Source of the DNA: Eledone cirrhosa | Taxonomy: Eukaryota | Direction: 5' to 3' | Length of the DNA stretch: 64,000 nucleotides | Assembly (NCBI GenBank): GCA_964016885.1 | Contig: OZ024752.1 | Span: 6,758,001 to 6,822,000 of the forward strand | Shown here: positions 4,321-50,260 of the stretch, piece by piece | Layout: each line of letters starts with the position of its first letter | Numbering within the stretch: position 1 is the stretch's first letter | Translations under genes and position numbers: made by a program | The notes under the pieces: model-generated | The model's input: only the letters and a program-made list of their open reading frames with translations | Databases searched by the model: none | Told to the model about the DNA's origin: nothing

Positions 4321-4502
4321 TGGTATGGTAGGGTCCCAGAACTCCTGATGGAGTTGGAGGGGCACTGTAGTGGCATACAGAATTTCTTGGGTATTTTAAG
4401 GATGGCAGAGCCCATCTCTCTCCAGGTCTGAATACAGCAAATTTCTTCCAGAGAAGGACAGAAAATGAGAGAGAAGAAGCGAGAAAGAGATATAGAGGAA
4501 GA

Positions 4503-4652
4503 ATCAACCCCAGTACTAGACTGGTATTTTTTTATCGACCTCGAAAGGATGAAAGACAAAGTTAACCTCGGCAGGATTTAAACTCAGAGAACCGGAAAGA
4601 ATGTTGCAAAGCATTCTATCTGATGTTCTAACAACTCTACCAATTTGCCACC
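4503..4652 (-). mobile_element. SINE family B, long variant, degenerate
   Basis: ATCGACCTCGAAAGGATGAAAGACAAAGTTAACCTCGGCAGGATTTAAACTCAG is the reverse complement of the family-B centre. Confidence 0.65.
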
Positions 4653-4945
4653 TTTTGTTTTCATTAGAAATATGGCAATGAATGTGTTAAAGGACATTTA
4701 TAAAAATATTCCATTGTAAATGATGAGAGACCAGTGAATAAAATTTATAACTGAATAACTTTCTATAATTGGTGTCAGTTTGTTTTTCACAAGGCTAGAC
4801 ACTAAATCAATCTTGTGCAATTTATCCAACAGTGAAATAGGATAAGGAAAAGAAAGAATATCCCATTGGTAAAGTGCCAAAGAAACTTTAAGACAGTTTG
4901 AAGTAGTGAGACAAATTATTTCCAATAACAGTTAGTAATTATTAC

Positions 4946-5170
4946 TTAAAACTTTTGATACCAAACTGCTTGAAACCACCCCTGCTTCTATGACACAAAG
5001 CTGTTTATTTTAAAGTCTATATACATTTAAAAACCTTACATCATAATTTTATATAAGAACCTTTGTTAAGTTATATTCCAAACACCAGCTTAATAATGAG
5101 AAAGTTAGTTATATTACTAAATTTCACTAAAATTCTTGATTATTTTCAAAATGATTTGAAAGTCATAGGA
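4946..5170 (+). mobile_element. MITE family M2 copy
   Basis: TTAAAACTTTTGATACCAAACTGCTTGAAACC... shares its body with 3885-4320, 5610-5805 (antisense) and the terminus at 31455-31480. Confidence 0.55.
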
Positions 5171-5502
5171 AAGTGGACATCAAAATGATGGTGATGATGA
5201 TGGTGATGGTTACAAACTGTAAACAAGCACCTTAGGAATCTGGGTGTTTCTTTGTTTATACATTTTAATCATAGTAACTATAATGTCTGCTGTATATTTT
5301 TTATGCCCAAGGGGGACATTTACATATATATATATATGTGTCTTTTTTTTTTCCTGTAGCCAAATAATTTGGTGGAATGTGTGAATATGTTAATTTACTG
5401 GAGGGCAGAAGACTGTACTTAGCAACAGCACAACTGCTTCCTCCTGCACTGGAGTCAAAACAAATTTAGAAATGTGGATTTACAAAACATTTGTAAGTAT
5501 GG

Positions 5503-5595
5503 ACAAATGGTTAAGAAGTTTGCTTTGCAATCACAAGGTCTTGGGTTTGATCTCACAAAATGGCATCTTGAGCAAGTGACTCACTATAGCCATGA
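5503..5595 (+). mobile_element. Degenerate tRNA-SINE head
   Basis: TGGTTAAGAAGTTTGCTTTGCAATCAC...GGGTTTGATCTCAC...CTTGAGCAAGTG. Confidence 0.55.
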
Positions 5596-5609
5596 AATAC
5601 ACTCTATTT

Positions 5610-5805
5610 TAATTAATTAATGAAGAATTTTGAGGGATTTACTAAAATGATTAGTTATTTCATTACTAAGATAGTAACTTAATGTAAGGTTCTTATATAA
5701 AGTTATGTTGGAAGATTTTAATTTAAATTGTAAACCTTTAAAATGGGTGATTTTTATTTCATAGAACCAGAACTGGTTTGGGCCGGGTTGGTAACTAAAT
5801 GGTGA
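5610..5805 (-). mobile_element. MITE family M2 copy (antisense)
   Basis: Reverse complement resembles 4946-5170 (TTATATAAGAACCTT, GTTACCAACCC.GCC). Confidence 0.5.
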
Positions 5806-5882
5806 TTCTTTTGTGAAATAGTATAGTTTTATTTTTTATGAGAAAATATGTATGTATATATTCTTTCTATTATCAAATTTAA

Positions 5883-6090
5883 CCTTTTAGCGTTTAAACT
5901 GGACACATCCGACCAGAATTCTCTCACCTCATTCTGTTCAAACTGGCTGTAATTGGCTGCTCATACTTGTGTTAAGGTATTGTTCTCAAATTAAATAATA
6001 TCAAAATTTCATAGATTTGATATTATGTGAGATAAAGTGTTTACCATGAAAATATAATAGTAAATATAGAATAATATAAATACTAAAGGT
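5883..6090 (+). mobile_element. MITE M1, single-unit (unexpanded) 208-bp copy with TTAA TSD
   Basis: TTAA|CCTTTTAGCGTTTA...TAAATACTAAAGGT|TTAA. Confidence 0.85.
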
Positions 6091-6292
6091 TTAAGTTTTC
6101 TTTATAAGTCTAAATAATATTTGTGATTTACATCATGGAAAAATATTTTTTCTGAAGAATGAAGGTTTTAACAAGGCTCCACCAATTAATTGGCTGATAA
6201 TCAGCAGGTATAAGCTGGTTTTGTCAATTAATTGGTTTTCATAATTGGCCATTATTGTTTTTTTTAATATAATTATTGATAGATATGTAAGA

Positions 6293-6560
6293 TTTAGTGG
6301 TAAGAGTGTTGGACTTATGATCATAATGTTGTGAGTTCGATTCCTGGGCTGTGTTGTAATCTTGTGCAAAACACTTTATTTCATGTTGCTCCAGTATACT
6401 CAGCTGAAAATGAGTACCAGCAATATCTGGGGAATTTAACCCTGCGATAGACTGCTATCCTATCCAGGAGGGGAGTGATGTACTCTCAGCTGCTTAACAC
6501 CACAGAAACTGGAATAAGGCCCAGCCTGATGAGGCTCCAGGCTTGAGTCAGACTTTAGAT
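6293..6560 (+). mobile_element. tRNA-derived SINE family C
   Basis: TTAGTGGTAAGAGTG, GAGTTCGATTCC, CACTTTATTTCATGTTGCTCCAG, AACCCTGCGATAGACTG. Similar to 13385-13600 and 61652-61820. Confidence 0.75.
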
Positions 6561-7228
6561 GTATGTTAGGGCAAGAAAACCATGGGTGACAGAGAAATTC
6601 AGAAAAACATGTTGGATTCAACATGTAGAAATACATAGGAAACATGTTATTTTCTAGGCCAAACATTTCAAGCCTCCCAGTGTAATATAACCCTACCTTT
6701 ACTGCTTCAATGCATGGATCTACACAACTGGAAATTACTTGAGGCTACTCAGGGGGCATTAACTCCCTGTAGGCGAAAGAGTGACAAAGTGGAAGAGAGA
6801 CCCTACAACCCAACAGAGACGATATGTGTTTAATTGACGTTTTAAAAATGAATTAATTATGATTAATTATGAAATATCTTTATAGAAAAACACAAGTGTC
6901 ATATATCAACCACTTTGTGCAAACTTTGACAGGTAAATAGTAATTTCATATCTTCCTCCCTACCTCTCTCTTTCTCTCATACAATGTTGACAAAATGTTC
7001 AGTAGTCCAGCAGCAGTTACCTATAGCTACTTACCTCTGTATCTTCAGAAAATAAATACATCTATCTATCTAATTTATCTATCTATCTACCTTCCTGTCT
7101 GTCTATCTACCTCCTTACTTCTCTATCTGTTTACCTATCTGTCAATCTATAGTTATCTATTTATGTATTTTTTTATCTATCTTCGGACAAGAGCAATAAT
7201 AACAACAACAAAGCCCAAAGCAATATGA

Positions 7229-7259
<31 letters not shown>

Positions 7260-7340
7260 TCAAAGTCTCTGTAATTTAGTGAATATATATGTGATAATGT
7301 TTAAAGAAAATATGGAAGAATATTACTGTAATTGATTTAA

Positions 7341-7446
7341 CCTTCAGCACGCTGAACTTTTTAATGTATTGCTTCCCTTAACACTGTATTATGTATTAAG
7401 GGGAGACTACTATTGGTGACATAATGTGTCTAGAGTGCCCAGAAGG
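7341..7446. mobile_element. Small TTAA-flanked MITE candidate
   Basis: TTAA|CCTTCAGCAC...GTGCCCAGAAGG|TTAA with an internal inverted repeat CCCTTAA...TTAAGGG. Confidence 0.5.
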
Positions 7447-7589
7447 TTAAATGAATGTAAAAATTAAAAATAGCAATGACTGGCGTGACAAGAGAGAAAA
7501 GGTCAAGGACTATATTGAAGATTCAAACATTGTTATATTGAATATTGTAAGGAATTATTAAATTAAATATTTAAAAACTATAAAACCCG

Positions 7590-8145
7590 AGGCTATAATT
7601 TCCAGAATAAGGACGGGTTGGAAGAAGTTTAGGGAGCTGCTTCCTCTGTTGACAAAGAAGGGTTTCTCCCTATGAACGAAAGGCTGGTTATATGATGCCT
7701 GTGTGAGATGCGCGATGCTTCATAGTGGTGAGACATGGGCAGCAATTGTAGAGGATATGCGATGGCTGGAGAGAAATGAAGCAAGCATGCTCCGTAGGAT
7801 GTGCAATGTTAATGTGCGTGAGAGAGAAACTGGATATAAGAGGGATAAGTTGTGGTGTGCATGAAAGAAGACTGCGTTGGTACGAACATGTGATGCGCAT
7901 GGAGGATGACCTCTGGGTGAAGAAGTGCCAGGTAATCCCAGTGGAAGGAAGACACAGTAGAGGAAGACCATGAAAAACATGGGCGGAGGTGGTGAGAGCT
8001 GATCTCAGATTGCTGAAACTCACTGAGGAGATGACAAAGGACCGTGACAACCGTGACAAGTGGAGAGATGCTGTGCTGAATAGGACCCGCCCCACCCTTG
8101 CAAGCAGGAAAAAGCAGACGTAAAATGATGATGATGATGATGATG
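7590..8145 (+). pseudogene. 5'-truncated RTE-clade LINE (post-RT C-terminal region and (GAT)n tail)
   Basis: Disrupted translation RIRTGWKKFRELLPLL..LYDACVRCAMLHSGETWA..LERNEASMLRRMC..RRLRWYEHVMRM..RGRP*KTWAEVV..DRDKWR, typical of RTE ORF C-termini. Contains stops and frameshifts. Confidence 0.9.
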
Positions 8146-8544
8146 AGGAGGAAAACCCATCATTTTTTATGGGTACAATGCTAGTTATAATAATAATAAT
8201 TAAAATTAATTATAATACCGTTTCATCATAATAGATAATTATATTATAAATAATTATATTATAGATAATAATAATTAGATGATTTATTAGTTTTGGCTGT
8301 TAAGGCAAGGCTGATTTAAGAGTTGTCAGTGCCACCCCAGTTACAATCCCTTCATTACAGGTGTTGATGAACTTATTATCTACCGACCACCTGGGCCATA
8401 TTAATTCATGGCTGGGACCCCCAGGATTTCAGAAATGTCGAGCTCCACCCCTGACACTTCAATCTATCACCCCACTACAGTAAAACTATAGATGATCCCC
8501 TAGTTCCTATGGTACCCCTAGACTTCAGCCTAGTCAGCCTTACG

Positions 8545-8726
8545 AATAATTGTTTCTATTTCGGCACAAGGCCGGCAATTACCCCAGTGTATTACTGGTA
8601 CACTATTTTATCGACCCTGTAAGGATGAAAGACAAAGCTAACCGCGGCAGGATTTGAACTCAGAATGTAAAGGGCCATAACTCTATGCTGCAAAGCATGG
8701 CATCTGATGCTCTACCGATACTGCTA
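8545..8726 (-). mobile_element. SINE family B
   Basis: Reverse complement of the 2001-2181 consensus. Confidence 0.8.
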
Positions 8727-8790
8727 AATGGCCTTGCCACCCCAAACACTTGACAGCCATGTGTGTATGCATGTCATTATCATCTGGTGG

Positions 8791-8973
8791 TTTGGCAGTA
8801 TCAGTAGAGGGTGGGACAACATGCTTTGTAGCACAGAGTTACGGCCCTTTACGCCCCGAGTTCAAATCCTGCTGAGGTTAACTTTACCTTTCATCCTTAC
8901 GGGGGTCGATAAAATAAAGTACCAGTAATGCACTGGGGTAATTGCTGGCCTTGTGCCCAAAGTAGAAACAATT
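8791..8973 (+). mobile_element. SINE family B
   Basis: Matches 2001-2181. Head-to-head with 8545-8726. Confidence 0.8.
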
Positions 8974-9135
8974 ATCATCATCATCGTTTAACGTCCATCT
9001 TCCATGCTAGCATGGGTTAGACAGGTTGTCCCATTTGAGGTAAGTTGAGTCAGGTGACCATGTTTTATACATACAGGACTGTTTCTGGGTGGGTTTCTAC
9101 AGCTGGATGCCCTTCCTAGAGCCAACCACCTTTAC
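8974..9135 (-). mobile_element. SINE family A 3' fragment
   Basis: (CAT)n-CGTTTAACGTCCATCTTCCATGCTAGCATGGGTT...CTACAGCTGGATGCCCTTCCT. Confidence 0.8.
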
Positions 9136-9249
9136 ATGTCAGTATATATATGTAAATGTGAGGGGGGGGGTATGTTTGGTTGTGCGGGTGTCAATGTGAG
9201 TGTGCATGAATGTGCAAGTGTGAATATCTATGTGCATATGTGAATACAG

Positions 9250-9665
9250 ATGTGTGTGTGTGTGTGTGTATGAGTGTGTGTGTGTATGCATGTGTTTGTG
9301 TGCATGTGTGTGTGTGTATCAATGTATGTGCGAATGCTATGTGGTAGGTTTCATATAGGTGTGTGTGTGTGTATATGTAGTTTCATTATACATATAAGTA
9401 TGTATGTGTGTGTATGTATGTGTGACTGTGTGTATGTTTGTAGTTTGATTATAAATATAGGTAGAAACAATTATAAATATAGGTGTGTGCGTGTCTGTGT
9501 GTGTGTATATATATATGTGTATATATGTAGGTTCACTATACATATAGGTGTGTGTATATATATATATATATGTGTGTATATATGTAGGTTCACTATACAT
9601 ATAGGTGTGTGTATATATATATATATATATATATGTGTATATATGTAGGTTCACTATACATACAG

Positions 9666-9717
<52 letters not shown>

Positions 9718-9744
9718 ATATATGTAGGTTCACTATACATATAG

Positions 9745-9797
<53 letters not shown>

Positions 9798-10223
9798 TCT
9801 ATATATATCTCTCTATATATATATATCTCTATATATATCTCTCTCTCTATATATATCTCTCTCTATATACATATCTCTCTCTCTATATATATATCTCTCT
9901 CTCTATATATATATCTCTCTCTCTATATATATATCTCTCTATATATATCTATCTCTCTCTCTATATATCTCTCTATATATATACCTGTCTCTCTCTCTCT
10001 ATATATATATCTATCTCTATATATATATATCTCTCTCTATATATATATATCTCTATATATATATATCTCTCTATATATATCTCTCTCTATATATCTCTCT
10101 CTATATATCTCTCTATATATATATATATCTCTCTCTATATATATATATATACCTGTCTCTCTCTCTCTATATATATATCTATCTCTATATATATATCTCT
10201 CTCTCTCTATATATATATATCTA

Positions 10224-32166: not shown

Positions 32167-32213
<47 letters not shown>

Positions 32214-32254
32214 CGAAACATAAGTCAATTGCATGAACTCATAATCCTTTATTT

Positions 32255-32312
32255 ACTGCTATATATATATTTCGATGATAGCCATTGAATGGCTATGACC
32301 TCATCAGGCAGT
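32255..32312 (-). ncRNA. Type I hammerhead ribozyme motif
   Basis: Minus strand: ACUGC CUGAUGA GGUCAUAGCCA UUCAA UGGCUAUCAUC GAAA UAUAUAUA UA GCAGU. Confidence 0.8.
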
Positions 32313-32560
32313 TAGTCAGTTCTTAGATATGCCAGCTCTGTGTTTATAGTGTTGATGGTATCAGAGCCTTGGGACATATGAGCTTGTTAGGTAGGAATAA
32401 TTTAATGTTGTCAGCAGGAATAGTCTTGATTCTCATTGGTCAGTTTGTAGATGGTAGTAGGGTTGGTATTTGACCTCAAAGAGGCAGGTGGTGTTCAAAC
32501 CATCAGGCAAGATGACAATAGTTCCATATGACTGATTTTCACAAAAGGCATTCCTGGTCA
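32255..32560 (-). mobile_element. Penelope-like element 3' relic
   Basis: Minus-strand translation ..GTIVILPDGLN.. resembles the C-terminal PxGLN motif of PLE GIY-YIG domains. It lies about 180 bp upstream of a hammerhead and a (TA)n flank. Confidence 0.5.
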
Positions 32561-48054: not shown

Positions 48055-48954
<900 letters not shown>

Positions 48955-49081
48955 GTGAGGTTTTTTTTACAAAATGAAAAATAACCGAGGTGTCCTACAC
49001 GAGTGAAAGTATAAAGAAAAAGAGATGAAATCGAAAATGCAACTGAAGTCTTATTTTTTTTTAAAATATATTTATTTTGTT

Positions 49082-49119
49082 CCTTTACCGGTTTCGCAGT
49101 TCTTCTGCTTTTCAAAAGG
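49082..49119 (-). ncRNA. Minimal type I hammerhead, U3-A8 core variant
   Basis: Reverse complement of the motif at 49179-49216. Confidence 0.65.
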
Positions 49120-49178
49120 TTAGTTGAGATGGGGCAGCTCACATGTGAGAAAAACCACAGACCCTCCATCTCAACTCA

Positions 49179-49216
49179 CCTTTTGAAAAGCAGAAGAACT
49201 GCGAAACCGGTAAAGG
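49179..49216 (+). ncRNA. Minimal type I hammerhead, U3-A8 core variant
   Basis: CCUU UUGAAAA GCAG AAGAA CUGC GAAA CCGG UA AAGG. Confidence 0.65.
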
Positions 49217-49441
49217 AACCAAATAAATATATATATTTTTTAAAAAAATAAGACTCCAGTTGCATTTTCGATTTCATCTCTTTTTCTTTATATATATACA
49301 TATATATATGTAGAAGTTATATTTAATTTGTTGGGATACAACAAGCAAATATTTTTATAACTGATATAAAGCACTCAACAAATTATTGGAGTAAATATAC
49401 AATATATTAACAAATGGAAACTATATTTATAAAACCATATT

Positions 49442-49506
49442 TATTTCATTATACATATTTCAAGGACACCAAAGCAAATTATGGTACGCTTTCATCAGAT
49501 AAACTA
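49442..49506 (-). ncRNA. Type I hammerhead ribozyme motif (left arm)
   Basis: Minus strand: UAGUUUAU CUGAUGA AAGCGUACCA UAAUUUGCUU UGGUGUCCUU GAAA UAUGUA UA AUGAAAUA. Confidence 0.65.
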
Positions 49507-49839
49507 TAATATAGATCAGTTTTATAAACAAATATTGACATACCCTTAAAGAATGTGACCATGTCGGTTGGAAGCTTCTGGATATTGGGGTTACTAATTT
49601 TATTATTGGTCTATTATGCAAATTAGTGTCAGAGAGGTTTAAATCCCAGTACATTTAAATTTTTTTTCCCTATTCCAACGGCTTAATTTAAATGTACTGG
49701 GATTTAAACCTCTCCGACACTAATTTGCATAATAGACCAATAATAAAATTAGTAACCCCATTATCCGGGAGCTTCCAACCGACATGGTCGCATTCTTTAA
49801 GGGTATGTCAATATTTGTTTATAAAACTGATCTATATTA

Positions 49840-49904
49840 TATTTTATCTGATGAAAGCGCACCATAATTTGCTTTGGTGTCCTTGAAATATGTATAATGA
49901 AATA
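49840..49904 (+). ncRNA. Type I hammerhead ribozyme motif (right arm)
   Basis: UAUUUUAU CUGAUGA AAGCGCACCA UAAUUUGCUU UGGUGUCCUU GAAA UAUGUA UA AUGAAAUA. Confidence 0.75.
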
Positions 49905-50260
49905 AATATGGTTTTATAAATATAGTTTCCATTTGTTAATATATTGTGTATATATATATATATATATATAAATTCATACATACATACATACATACATACA
50001 TACATACATACATACACATATACATATATACATACATACACACATATATACACAATCATACACCCATACACATATACAAACACATATGGAAACACAAATA
50101 CATACATAAACCATATATACATACATACACCATATATACATACATACACACATATATACATACATACATATACACACACATATATACACCATATATACAC
50201 CATACATACATACATACACACATATACACATACATACACCATATATAGATACATACATAT

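Follow-up and report, generated by a model that had tools for sequence, protein, structure and literature searches.

Two hammerhead-bearing palindromes in one TA repeat of Eledone cirrhosa as probable abortive Penelope-like element insertions

Introduction

Two palindromes with a hammerhead motif in each arm lie side by side in the genome of Eledone cirrhosa, and their arrangement raises the question of whether they are debris of retrotransposition or mobile palindromic units in their own right. The window analyzed here, that is, the whole stretch of 64,000 nucleotides of contig OZ024752.1, is AT-rich, and simple repeats make up about half of it, with 30,093 of its 64,000 bases masked. The initial annotation offered two readings, extremely truncated insertions of Penelope-like elements (PLEs) or a non-autonomous palindromic ribozyme element. 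The former is supported by one-sided tails, a truncation gradient, variable fold-back points, unmirrored relatives and published precedent; the latter finds no support, as the breakpoints seen in sequencing reads vary between copies. We consider it highly probable that the two palindromes, here P1 and P2, are two independent, dead-on-arrival PLE insertions, 5'-truncated and arranged head-to-head, in the same TA repeat.

The literature on PLEs provides the frame for this reading. Insertions have been described as carrying an inverted 5'-truncated copy and a one-sided tail of 30–40 bp, with (TA)n tracts as targets (PMC8557442), and head-to-head repeats with palindromes at their junction have been reported (PMC3846280), the description of such pLTRs being repeated in PMC8969392.

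Geometry of the Two Units

Both palindromes are real in the sequence, P1 as an inverted repeat at 49010–49292 and P2 as one at 49399–49947, and they are unrelated, as had been proposed: blastn found no match between P1 and P2. In a global alignment of 49010–49134 with 49164–49292, the P1 arms differ by 6 mismatches and one 4-nt indel, and the P2 arms, of 263 nt each, align without gaps and with 7 mismatches. The plan of the two units is the same, namely (TA)n, tail, arm, spacer, inverted arm and (TA)n.

In P1, the arm alignment places the left arm, a tail-bearing 5'-truncated copy, at 49010–49132 on the minus strand and the right arm, a tail-less copy, at 49166–49292 on the plus strand. The 33-nt spacer between them (49133–49165) consists, on the basis of reads and sequence, of filler at 49133–49142 followed by family sequence at 49143–49165 that runs into the right arm, and it contains a perfect 12-bp palindrome (49138–49149), a length reached in 42 of 20,000 shuffles of the spacer. 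In P2, the tail-bearing left arm occupies 49399–49661 on the minus strand (arm alignment and reads), and the tail-less right arm 49685–49947 on the plus strand (arm alignment); according to joints in contigs of sample X1, part of the 23-nt spacer (49662–49684, plus strand), namely 49668–49684, probably belongs to the family and runs on into the right arm. In both units, the 5' end of the tail-less arm overhangs that of the tailed arm, with a difference of 23 nt in P1 and 17–23 nt in P2; although there are just two cases, the overhang could be a trace of how the copies were joined.

In element sense, the left arm of each unit continues beyond the point where the right arm stops and then reaches (TA)n. 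This one-sided 3' extension is 59 nt long in P1 (48951–49009, minus strand, from the sequence) and about 80–87 nt in P2 (49312–49398, minus strand, from read depth), which corrects the initial view that each unit comprises only a mirrored segment. The P2 tail is high-copy family sequence, because the read depth at 49315–49394 is hundreds to thousands; the P1 tail, of which there is no second copy within the 64-kb window, presumably belongs to its family as well. Inspection by eye of the minus strand of P1 downstream of the hammerhead (48975–49090) showed a donor-like site at the predicted cut and, within the tail, a pyrimidine tract along with an acceptor-like site; together they could point to an intron in the 5' UTR of the kind present in Drosophila Penelope.

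Tandem Repeats Finder (TRF) detected (TA)n on both sides of both units, and reads also show loose ends of (TA)n. A (TA)n-rich target tract lies left of P1 (48822–48948), a short tract of about 20 bp runs from P1 to the P2 tail (49289–49309), and (TA)n followed by (TACA)n lies right of P2 (49948–50259; TRF and sequence). The (TA)n noted earlier at the right ends is thus present, and the same repeat, missed at the time, also lies left of each extension. Likewise, the gap of 105 bp seen between the palindromes exists, being made up of the short TA tract and P2's own extension, so that it does not separate the insertions, which nearly abut. Within the flanking (TA)n, a target-site duplication is unreadable for both units.

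Hammerhead Motifs

A minimal type I hammerhead motif, with its sense strand pointing outward from the center, was found by our own descriptor in all four arms, bearing out what had been seen by inspection. In P1, the left motif spans 49082–49119 on the minus strand (core at 49115, predicted cut after 49086) and the right motif 49179–49216 on the plus strand (core at 49183, predicted cut after 49212); both have the U3-A8 core variant and stems I and II of 4 bp each. In P2, the left motif lies at 49445–49503 on the minus strand (core at 49498, predicted cut after 49450) and the right motif at 49840–49904 on the plus strand (core at 49848, predicted cut after 49896), both with the usual C3-G8 core and with a stem I of 8 bp on the right that is shortened to 5 bp on the left. 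The distance from the predicted cut site to the outer end of the arm is 51–80 nt in every case.

The descriptor returned six motifs in the 64-kb window, four of them in the arms of P1 and P2, against an average of 0.1 in 30 block shuffles; dinucleotide shuffles of a single arm gave a motif in 2 of 2000 cases for P1 and in 1 of 2000 for P2. As sequence motifs, the four hammerheads are therefore real and far beyond chance. Rfam reported no family at gathering score in the window, and its 40 weak matches within 48900–50050 included no hammerhead; the ribozyme assignment is based on our descriptor and the published description of minimal hammerheads (min-HHRs). The Rfam matches were mostly to miRNA models, which fit any long hairpin, and were all below gathering score, and a miRNA reading was rejected. 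When two copies were cofolded, the P1 dimer paired via the helix III palindrome and the P2 dimers lacked this pairing in the lowest-energy structure, an outcome not counted as a sign of ribozyme activity.

Predicted Folding of Read-Through and Center-Started RNA

The full P1 transcript is predicted to fold at -181 kcal/mol (z -33) and the full P2 transcript at about -420 kcal/mol. In all four full-length transcripts, the predicted probability of helices I and II is 0.000, and that of helix II stays at this value in prefixes ending 10 nt past the cut site; folded alone, the motifs reach 0.84–0.94 for helix II and 0.27–0.53 for helix I. The ribozyme helices would be blocked in read-through RNA because the antisense arm is transcribed first, whichever strand is read. 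Read-through RNA from either strand is thus predicted to form a hairpin of 125 bp or 263 bp that blocks both ribozymes, and the competition between hairpin and self-cleavage proposed in the initial annotation holds in silico, more strongly than it had been put.

Published minimal hammerheads are reported to cleave weakly and as dimers only (PMC4209133), and the two ribozymes of a unit, being on opposite strands, could not form such a dimer within one transcript. In Anolis, the PLE ribozyme is reported to require the element's protein and to be dispensable for insertion in vitro (PMC11167929).

The folding results also bear on a different view of the locus, in which the whole palindrome would be a non-autonomous unit copied by a PLE enzyme in trans, for example with a central bidirectional promoter and with each half self-cleaving. 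Transcripts starting at the center would permit stem II in P1 (predicted helix II 0.81 and 0.94), with only 0.32 and 0.04 predicted in P2. According to PMC3846280, pLTRs that act in cis can mobilize other sequence in trans, and bidirectional promoter motifs may be present in them. Against such a unit stands the decay of the left ribozyme of P2, and the reads weigh further against it.

Family Copies in Sequencing Reads

The read search covered 49115–49705, which takes in the spacer and right arm of P1 and, from P2, the tail, the left arm and the spacer, together with about 20 nt of the second arm of each unit; the P1 tail lies outside this span, and 49212–49319 was skipped as repeat. Read ends at 49325–49328 were rejected as a terminus of the P2 tail on account of this skipped segment. 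Four of 20 listed runs were used, those with small shares of the sequence being left aside, and no RNA run was among those listed. The samples were X1 (contigs; the best match), X18 and X19 (RAD-seq runs with the same species label) and X5 (contigs from another organism), and the records placed on the span numbered 8,133, 31,363, 34,346 and 63, respectively.

In X18, the depth along P2, with both directions summed, is about 24,700 at 49435–54, 2,100 at 49475–94 and 1,200 at 49535–54, and then 780, 420 (49575–94), 57, 18, 11, 4.7 and 2.7 in successive bins to 49694; the profile of X19 is similar. The depth in both samples falls toward the 5' side of the element and so describes a gradient of 5' truncation in the P2 family, with the reservation that RAD libraries distort depth and that the highest X18 peak is probably inflated by RAD tags. 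The summed contig depth in X1, which gives no copy number, goes from about 3 million to 0.5–0.7 million and 60,000 and is then flat at 4,500–10,100 over 49575–49694.

For the P1 family, the depth in X18 drops from 614 at 49146 to 38 at 49145, and reads with loose ends before 49143 continue there into a different sequence, with which the family goes on upstream of 49143–49146. Because of this drop in depth and of the other sequence before 49143, we regard 49133–49142 as junction filler private to P1.

Many reads exit the element into (TA)n before 49395–49409, which marks a common tail-less 3' end. A tail-less terminus that is common while the tail itself is family sequence is what would be expected from two start sites of reverse transcription, as reported in PMC11167929. 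Among the 15 joints listed out of 29, there were 10 strand switches, 3 skips and 2 cases of going back. Of the 10 listed strand switches, two fall at the 3' end and 7 at various internal positions of the element; 5 of these 7 were present in both RAD samples, and most joints are supported by 1–5 read starts. The strand-switch joint 49641/49698, found in one X1 contig at a depth of 7.9, fits the P2 right arm with its spacer. X1 also contains skips from 49444 to 49668 and from 49520 to 49673, in one contig each, and their landing points suggest that the P2 spacer represents the part of the family that precedes the right arm.

These data make the copying of a whole palindromic unit in trans very unlikely. 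Between the hammerhead region and the P2 spacer, the raw-read depth drops by a factor of about ten thousand, the strand-switch joints vary between copies, the filler at the P1 junction is not common to the family, and unmirrored copies exist. A fixed palindromic unit or MITE would have the same ends and spacer at many loci, in a symmetric arrangement, whereas the ends here are asymmetric and the joints in the reads vary. The flat X1 depth over 49575–49694 does leave room for a subfamily with a common 5' region, and a mobile fold-back subfamily, in which transcription would run outward from the center and each self-cleaved half would be re-inserted by a PLE enzyme as a palindrome, is given equally little credence here. 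If such a subfamily existed, its read-through hairpin would be a built-in off switch and a source of small RNA against the parent family.

The arms of P2 share minority states at 49529, 49563 and 49566, where 84–89% of X18 reads differ, and the arms of P1 share them at 49178 and 49179, where 81–82% of reads differ. Minority variants common to both arms are expected if one template was copied, or from later homogenization. They also fit local duplication, and hence the proposal that P1 and P2 are later inverted duplications of solo PLE fragments, or else MITE-like fold-back DNA transposons, in which the hammerheads would be passengers. Inverted repeats that are short, non-coding and set in a TA context do resemble MITEs. 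We nevertheless consider this proposal very improbable, given the asymmetric ends with their one-sided tail, the single direction of the family truncation gradient, and the repetition of the same geometry, twice here and a third time at 22874–23131.

As to the locus itself, the depth at 49115–49134 is zero in all four runs, which leaves the P1 junction without read support, and no single piece spans 49115–49705. As for reads crossing the palindromes, a point raised with the initial annotation, the P2 junction is touched by only the one contig with joint 49641/49698. What the reads confirm are the families and their insertion habit, not the P1/P2 locus. A fold-back chimera mirroring a single PLE fragment, arising in the assembly or library, would account for both the hole and the lack of a spanning piece; such a hole would also be left by a polymorphic insertion, and the runs are probably from other individuals (the best match contains 0.69 of the sequence words). 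The differences between arms, at 6 positions in P1 and 7 in P2, count against an artefact, as had been argued from the arm mismatches at the outset. Of the 7 differences in P2, 5 are transitions and 3 are at CpG, 6 occur as private changes of the left arm while no site is clearly private to the right one, and the remaining site departs from the family in both arms; the pattern is lopsided toward the left arm, yet the sites are few. Such transitions, CpG changes and one-arm private states are as expected from aging in the genome, and with one-sided tails and spacers that are family sequence, we regard an artefact as very improbable.

Related and Other Elements in the Window

On whether arms occur elsewhere only unmirrored, another point raised at the outset, the window has unmirrored relatives with cores at 17051 (+) and 32307 (-), both adjoining (TA)n, and strand-switched family copies are also present in the reads. 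The hammerhead copy at 17043–17155 (+) is related to the P2 family, with the same core flanks and helix III; its helix II differs from that of P2, and its 3' end, tail-less and at the same point, borders on (TA)n. The copy at 32210–32560 (-) belongs to a third hammerhead family and has (TA)n at both ends. Upstream of its motif is a 43-codon frame that had no Pfam match and that bears some resemblance to the end of a PLE endonuclease.

The unit at 22874–23131 consists of (TA)n, an arm of about 70 nt, a spacer, an inverted arm, an 80-nt one-sided extension and (TA)n, and 23 nt of it recur at 21797–21819. It has no hammerhead core and may come from a PLE family that lacks the ribozyme, for example a Naiad, or may be a stub truncated below the motif.

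The window also contains inverted pairs of SINE-like repeats, 77–95% alike and without a hammerhead motif (8546–8975, 22238–22365 and 448–844), and a short tandem array at 50726–50880 with a 23-bp unit containing a telomere-like G-rich motif. A long minisatellite at 57699–59795, with a period of 20 codons, is open over about 690 codons in two reading frames and is probably non-coding.

Comparison with Published Systems

The arrangement of P1 and P2 is already in print (PMC4209133, PMC8557442 and PMC3846280). P1 and P2 share with the insertion units of endonuclease-bearing (EN+) PLEs the head-to-head truncated copies, the tail at one end, the junction palindrome (in P1), the microsatellite target and the hammerhead near the 3' end; they differ in having no ORF and in arms of only 120–290 nt. 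Their tails, of about 59 and 80–87 nt, compare with the 30–40 bp given for PLEs in PMC8557442. Longer tails and the presence of two families side by side in one tract are small departures from what has been printed.

In 2014, Cervera and De la Pena (PMC4209133) described the U3-A8 core as well as dual min-HHRs that lie on opposite strands at a distance of about 100–700 bp and probably derive from truncated PLEs. The min-HHRs of metazoan PLEs and those of P1 and P2 have in common the type I topology, the tiny palindromic helix III, the U3-A8 variant (in P1) and the opposite-strand pairs at 100–700 bp; the host and sequence families are other ones, and the ribozymes of P1 and P2 are putative.

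Microsatellite preference is a feature of the Neptune clade of PLEs. For the Hydra clade, (TA)n targets and canonical hammerheads have been reported, and the supplement of the same paper includes a (TA)n-targeting Hydra family in Octopus bimaculoides (PMC8557442); three short motifs from the window had 0 matches in that supplement. P1 and P2 resemble these C-terminal EN+ elements in targets and hammerheads, and offer no protein sequence for placement. The Naiad clade is reported to be without canonical hammerhead motifs (PMC8557442), whereas P1 and P2 carry complete minimal ones. In Octopus vulgaris, 31 recently active PLE families have been reported (PMC13282606).

Like non-LTR retrozymes, P1 and P2 are short, non-coding, AT-rich and PLE-related and have a type I hammerhead. 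Retrozymes are described as direct tandem repeats (PMC7229834; bioRxiv 10.64898/2026.07.22.740005) giving circular RNA, whereas P1 and P2 are inverted pairs with one ribozyme per strand; no direct tandem of 150–450 bp with hammerheads was found in 48700–50300, which sets the two units apart from retrozymes. A literature search over titles and the beginnings of abstracts showed no palindromic class of retrozyme among the papers listed.

Proposed Origin and Implications

Membership of P1 and P2 in the PLEs is assigned by architecture, judged from the sequence, and every testable feature of such insertions was found. Both units have the one-sided 3' tail, the head-to-head inverted 5'-truncated copy, the (TA)n target and the near-3' hammerhead motif, and strong, variable 5' truncation appears in the depth gradient of the P2 family and in the P1 family running upstream of the end of P1. 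Of the 90 frames in the window that reach at least 120 aa, none is, judged by eye, an RT or GIY-YIG ORF, and Pfam found 0 families in four short frames, one of them an ATG-initiated frame of 64 codons that overlies the right arm of P2. Pattern scans of metagenome_contigs and viral_contigs for relatives with flanks gave 0 matches.

Following the PLE literature, the GIY-YIG endonuclease of the parent element would nick the TA tract, and reverse transcription would begin downstream of the hammerhead, at one or the other of two sites, so that one arm would end up with a tail and the other without, and would stall after 120–290 nt. A second priming on the same template, at an opposite-strand nick or by fold-back self-priming, would produce the inverted copy, and the copies would be joined with a few nucleotides of filler. 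Two different families would have entered the same tract independently in this way. The Anolis enzyme is reported to cut and extend both strands, starting at two sites that bound the tail (PMC11167929), and these properties fit twin priming. Junction palindromes have led to the proposal of self-priming (PMC3846280), and the 12-bp palindrome at the P1 junction fits this route. The present data are compatible with both routes. The product, having no RT, is likely inert.

As they stand, P1 and P2 are ordinary genomic debris of a known kind. The formation of inverted PLE insertions is still called undefined in PMC8557442, and the two very high-copy families provide material for this question, as their shared minority variants, their long tails and the similar 5' overhang of the tail-less arm could be mined genome-wide to distinguish twin priming from fold-back self-priming. 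If transcribed, the hairpins would serve as natural dsRNA triggers directed at the parent family.
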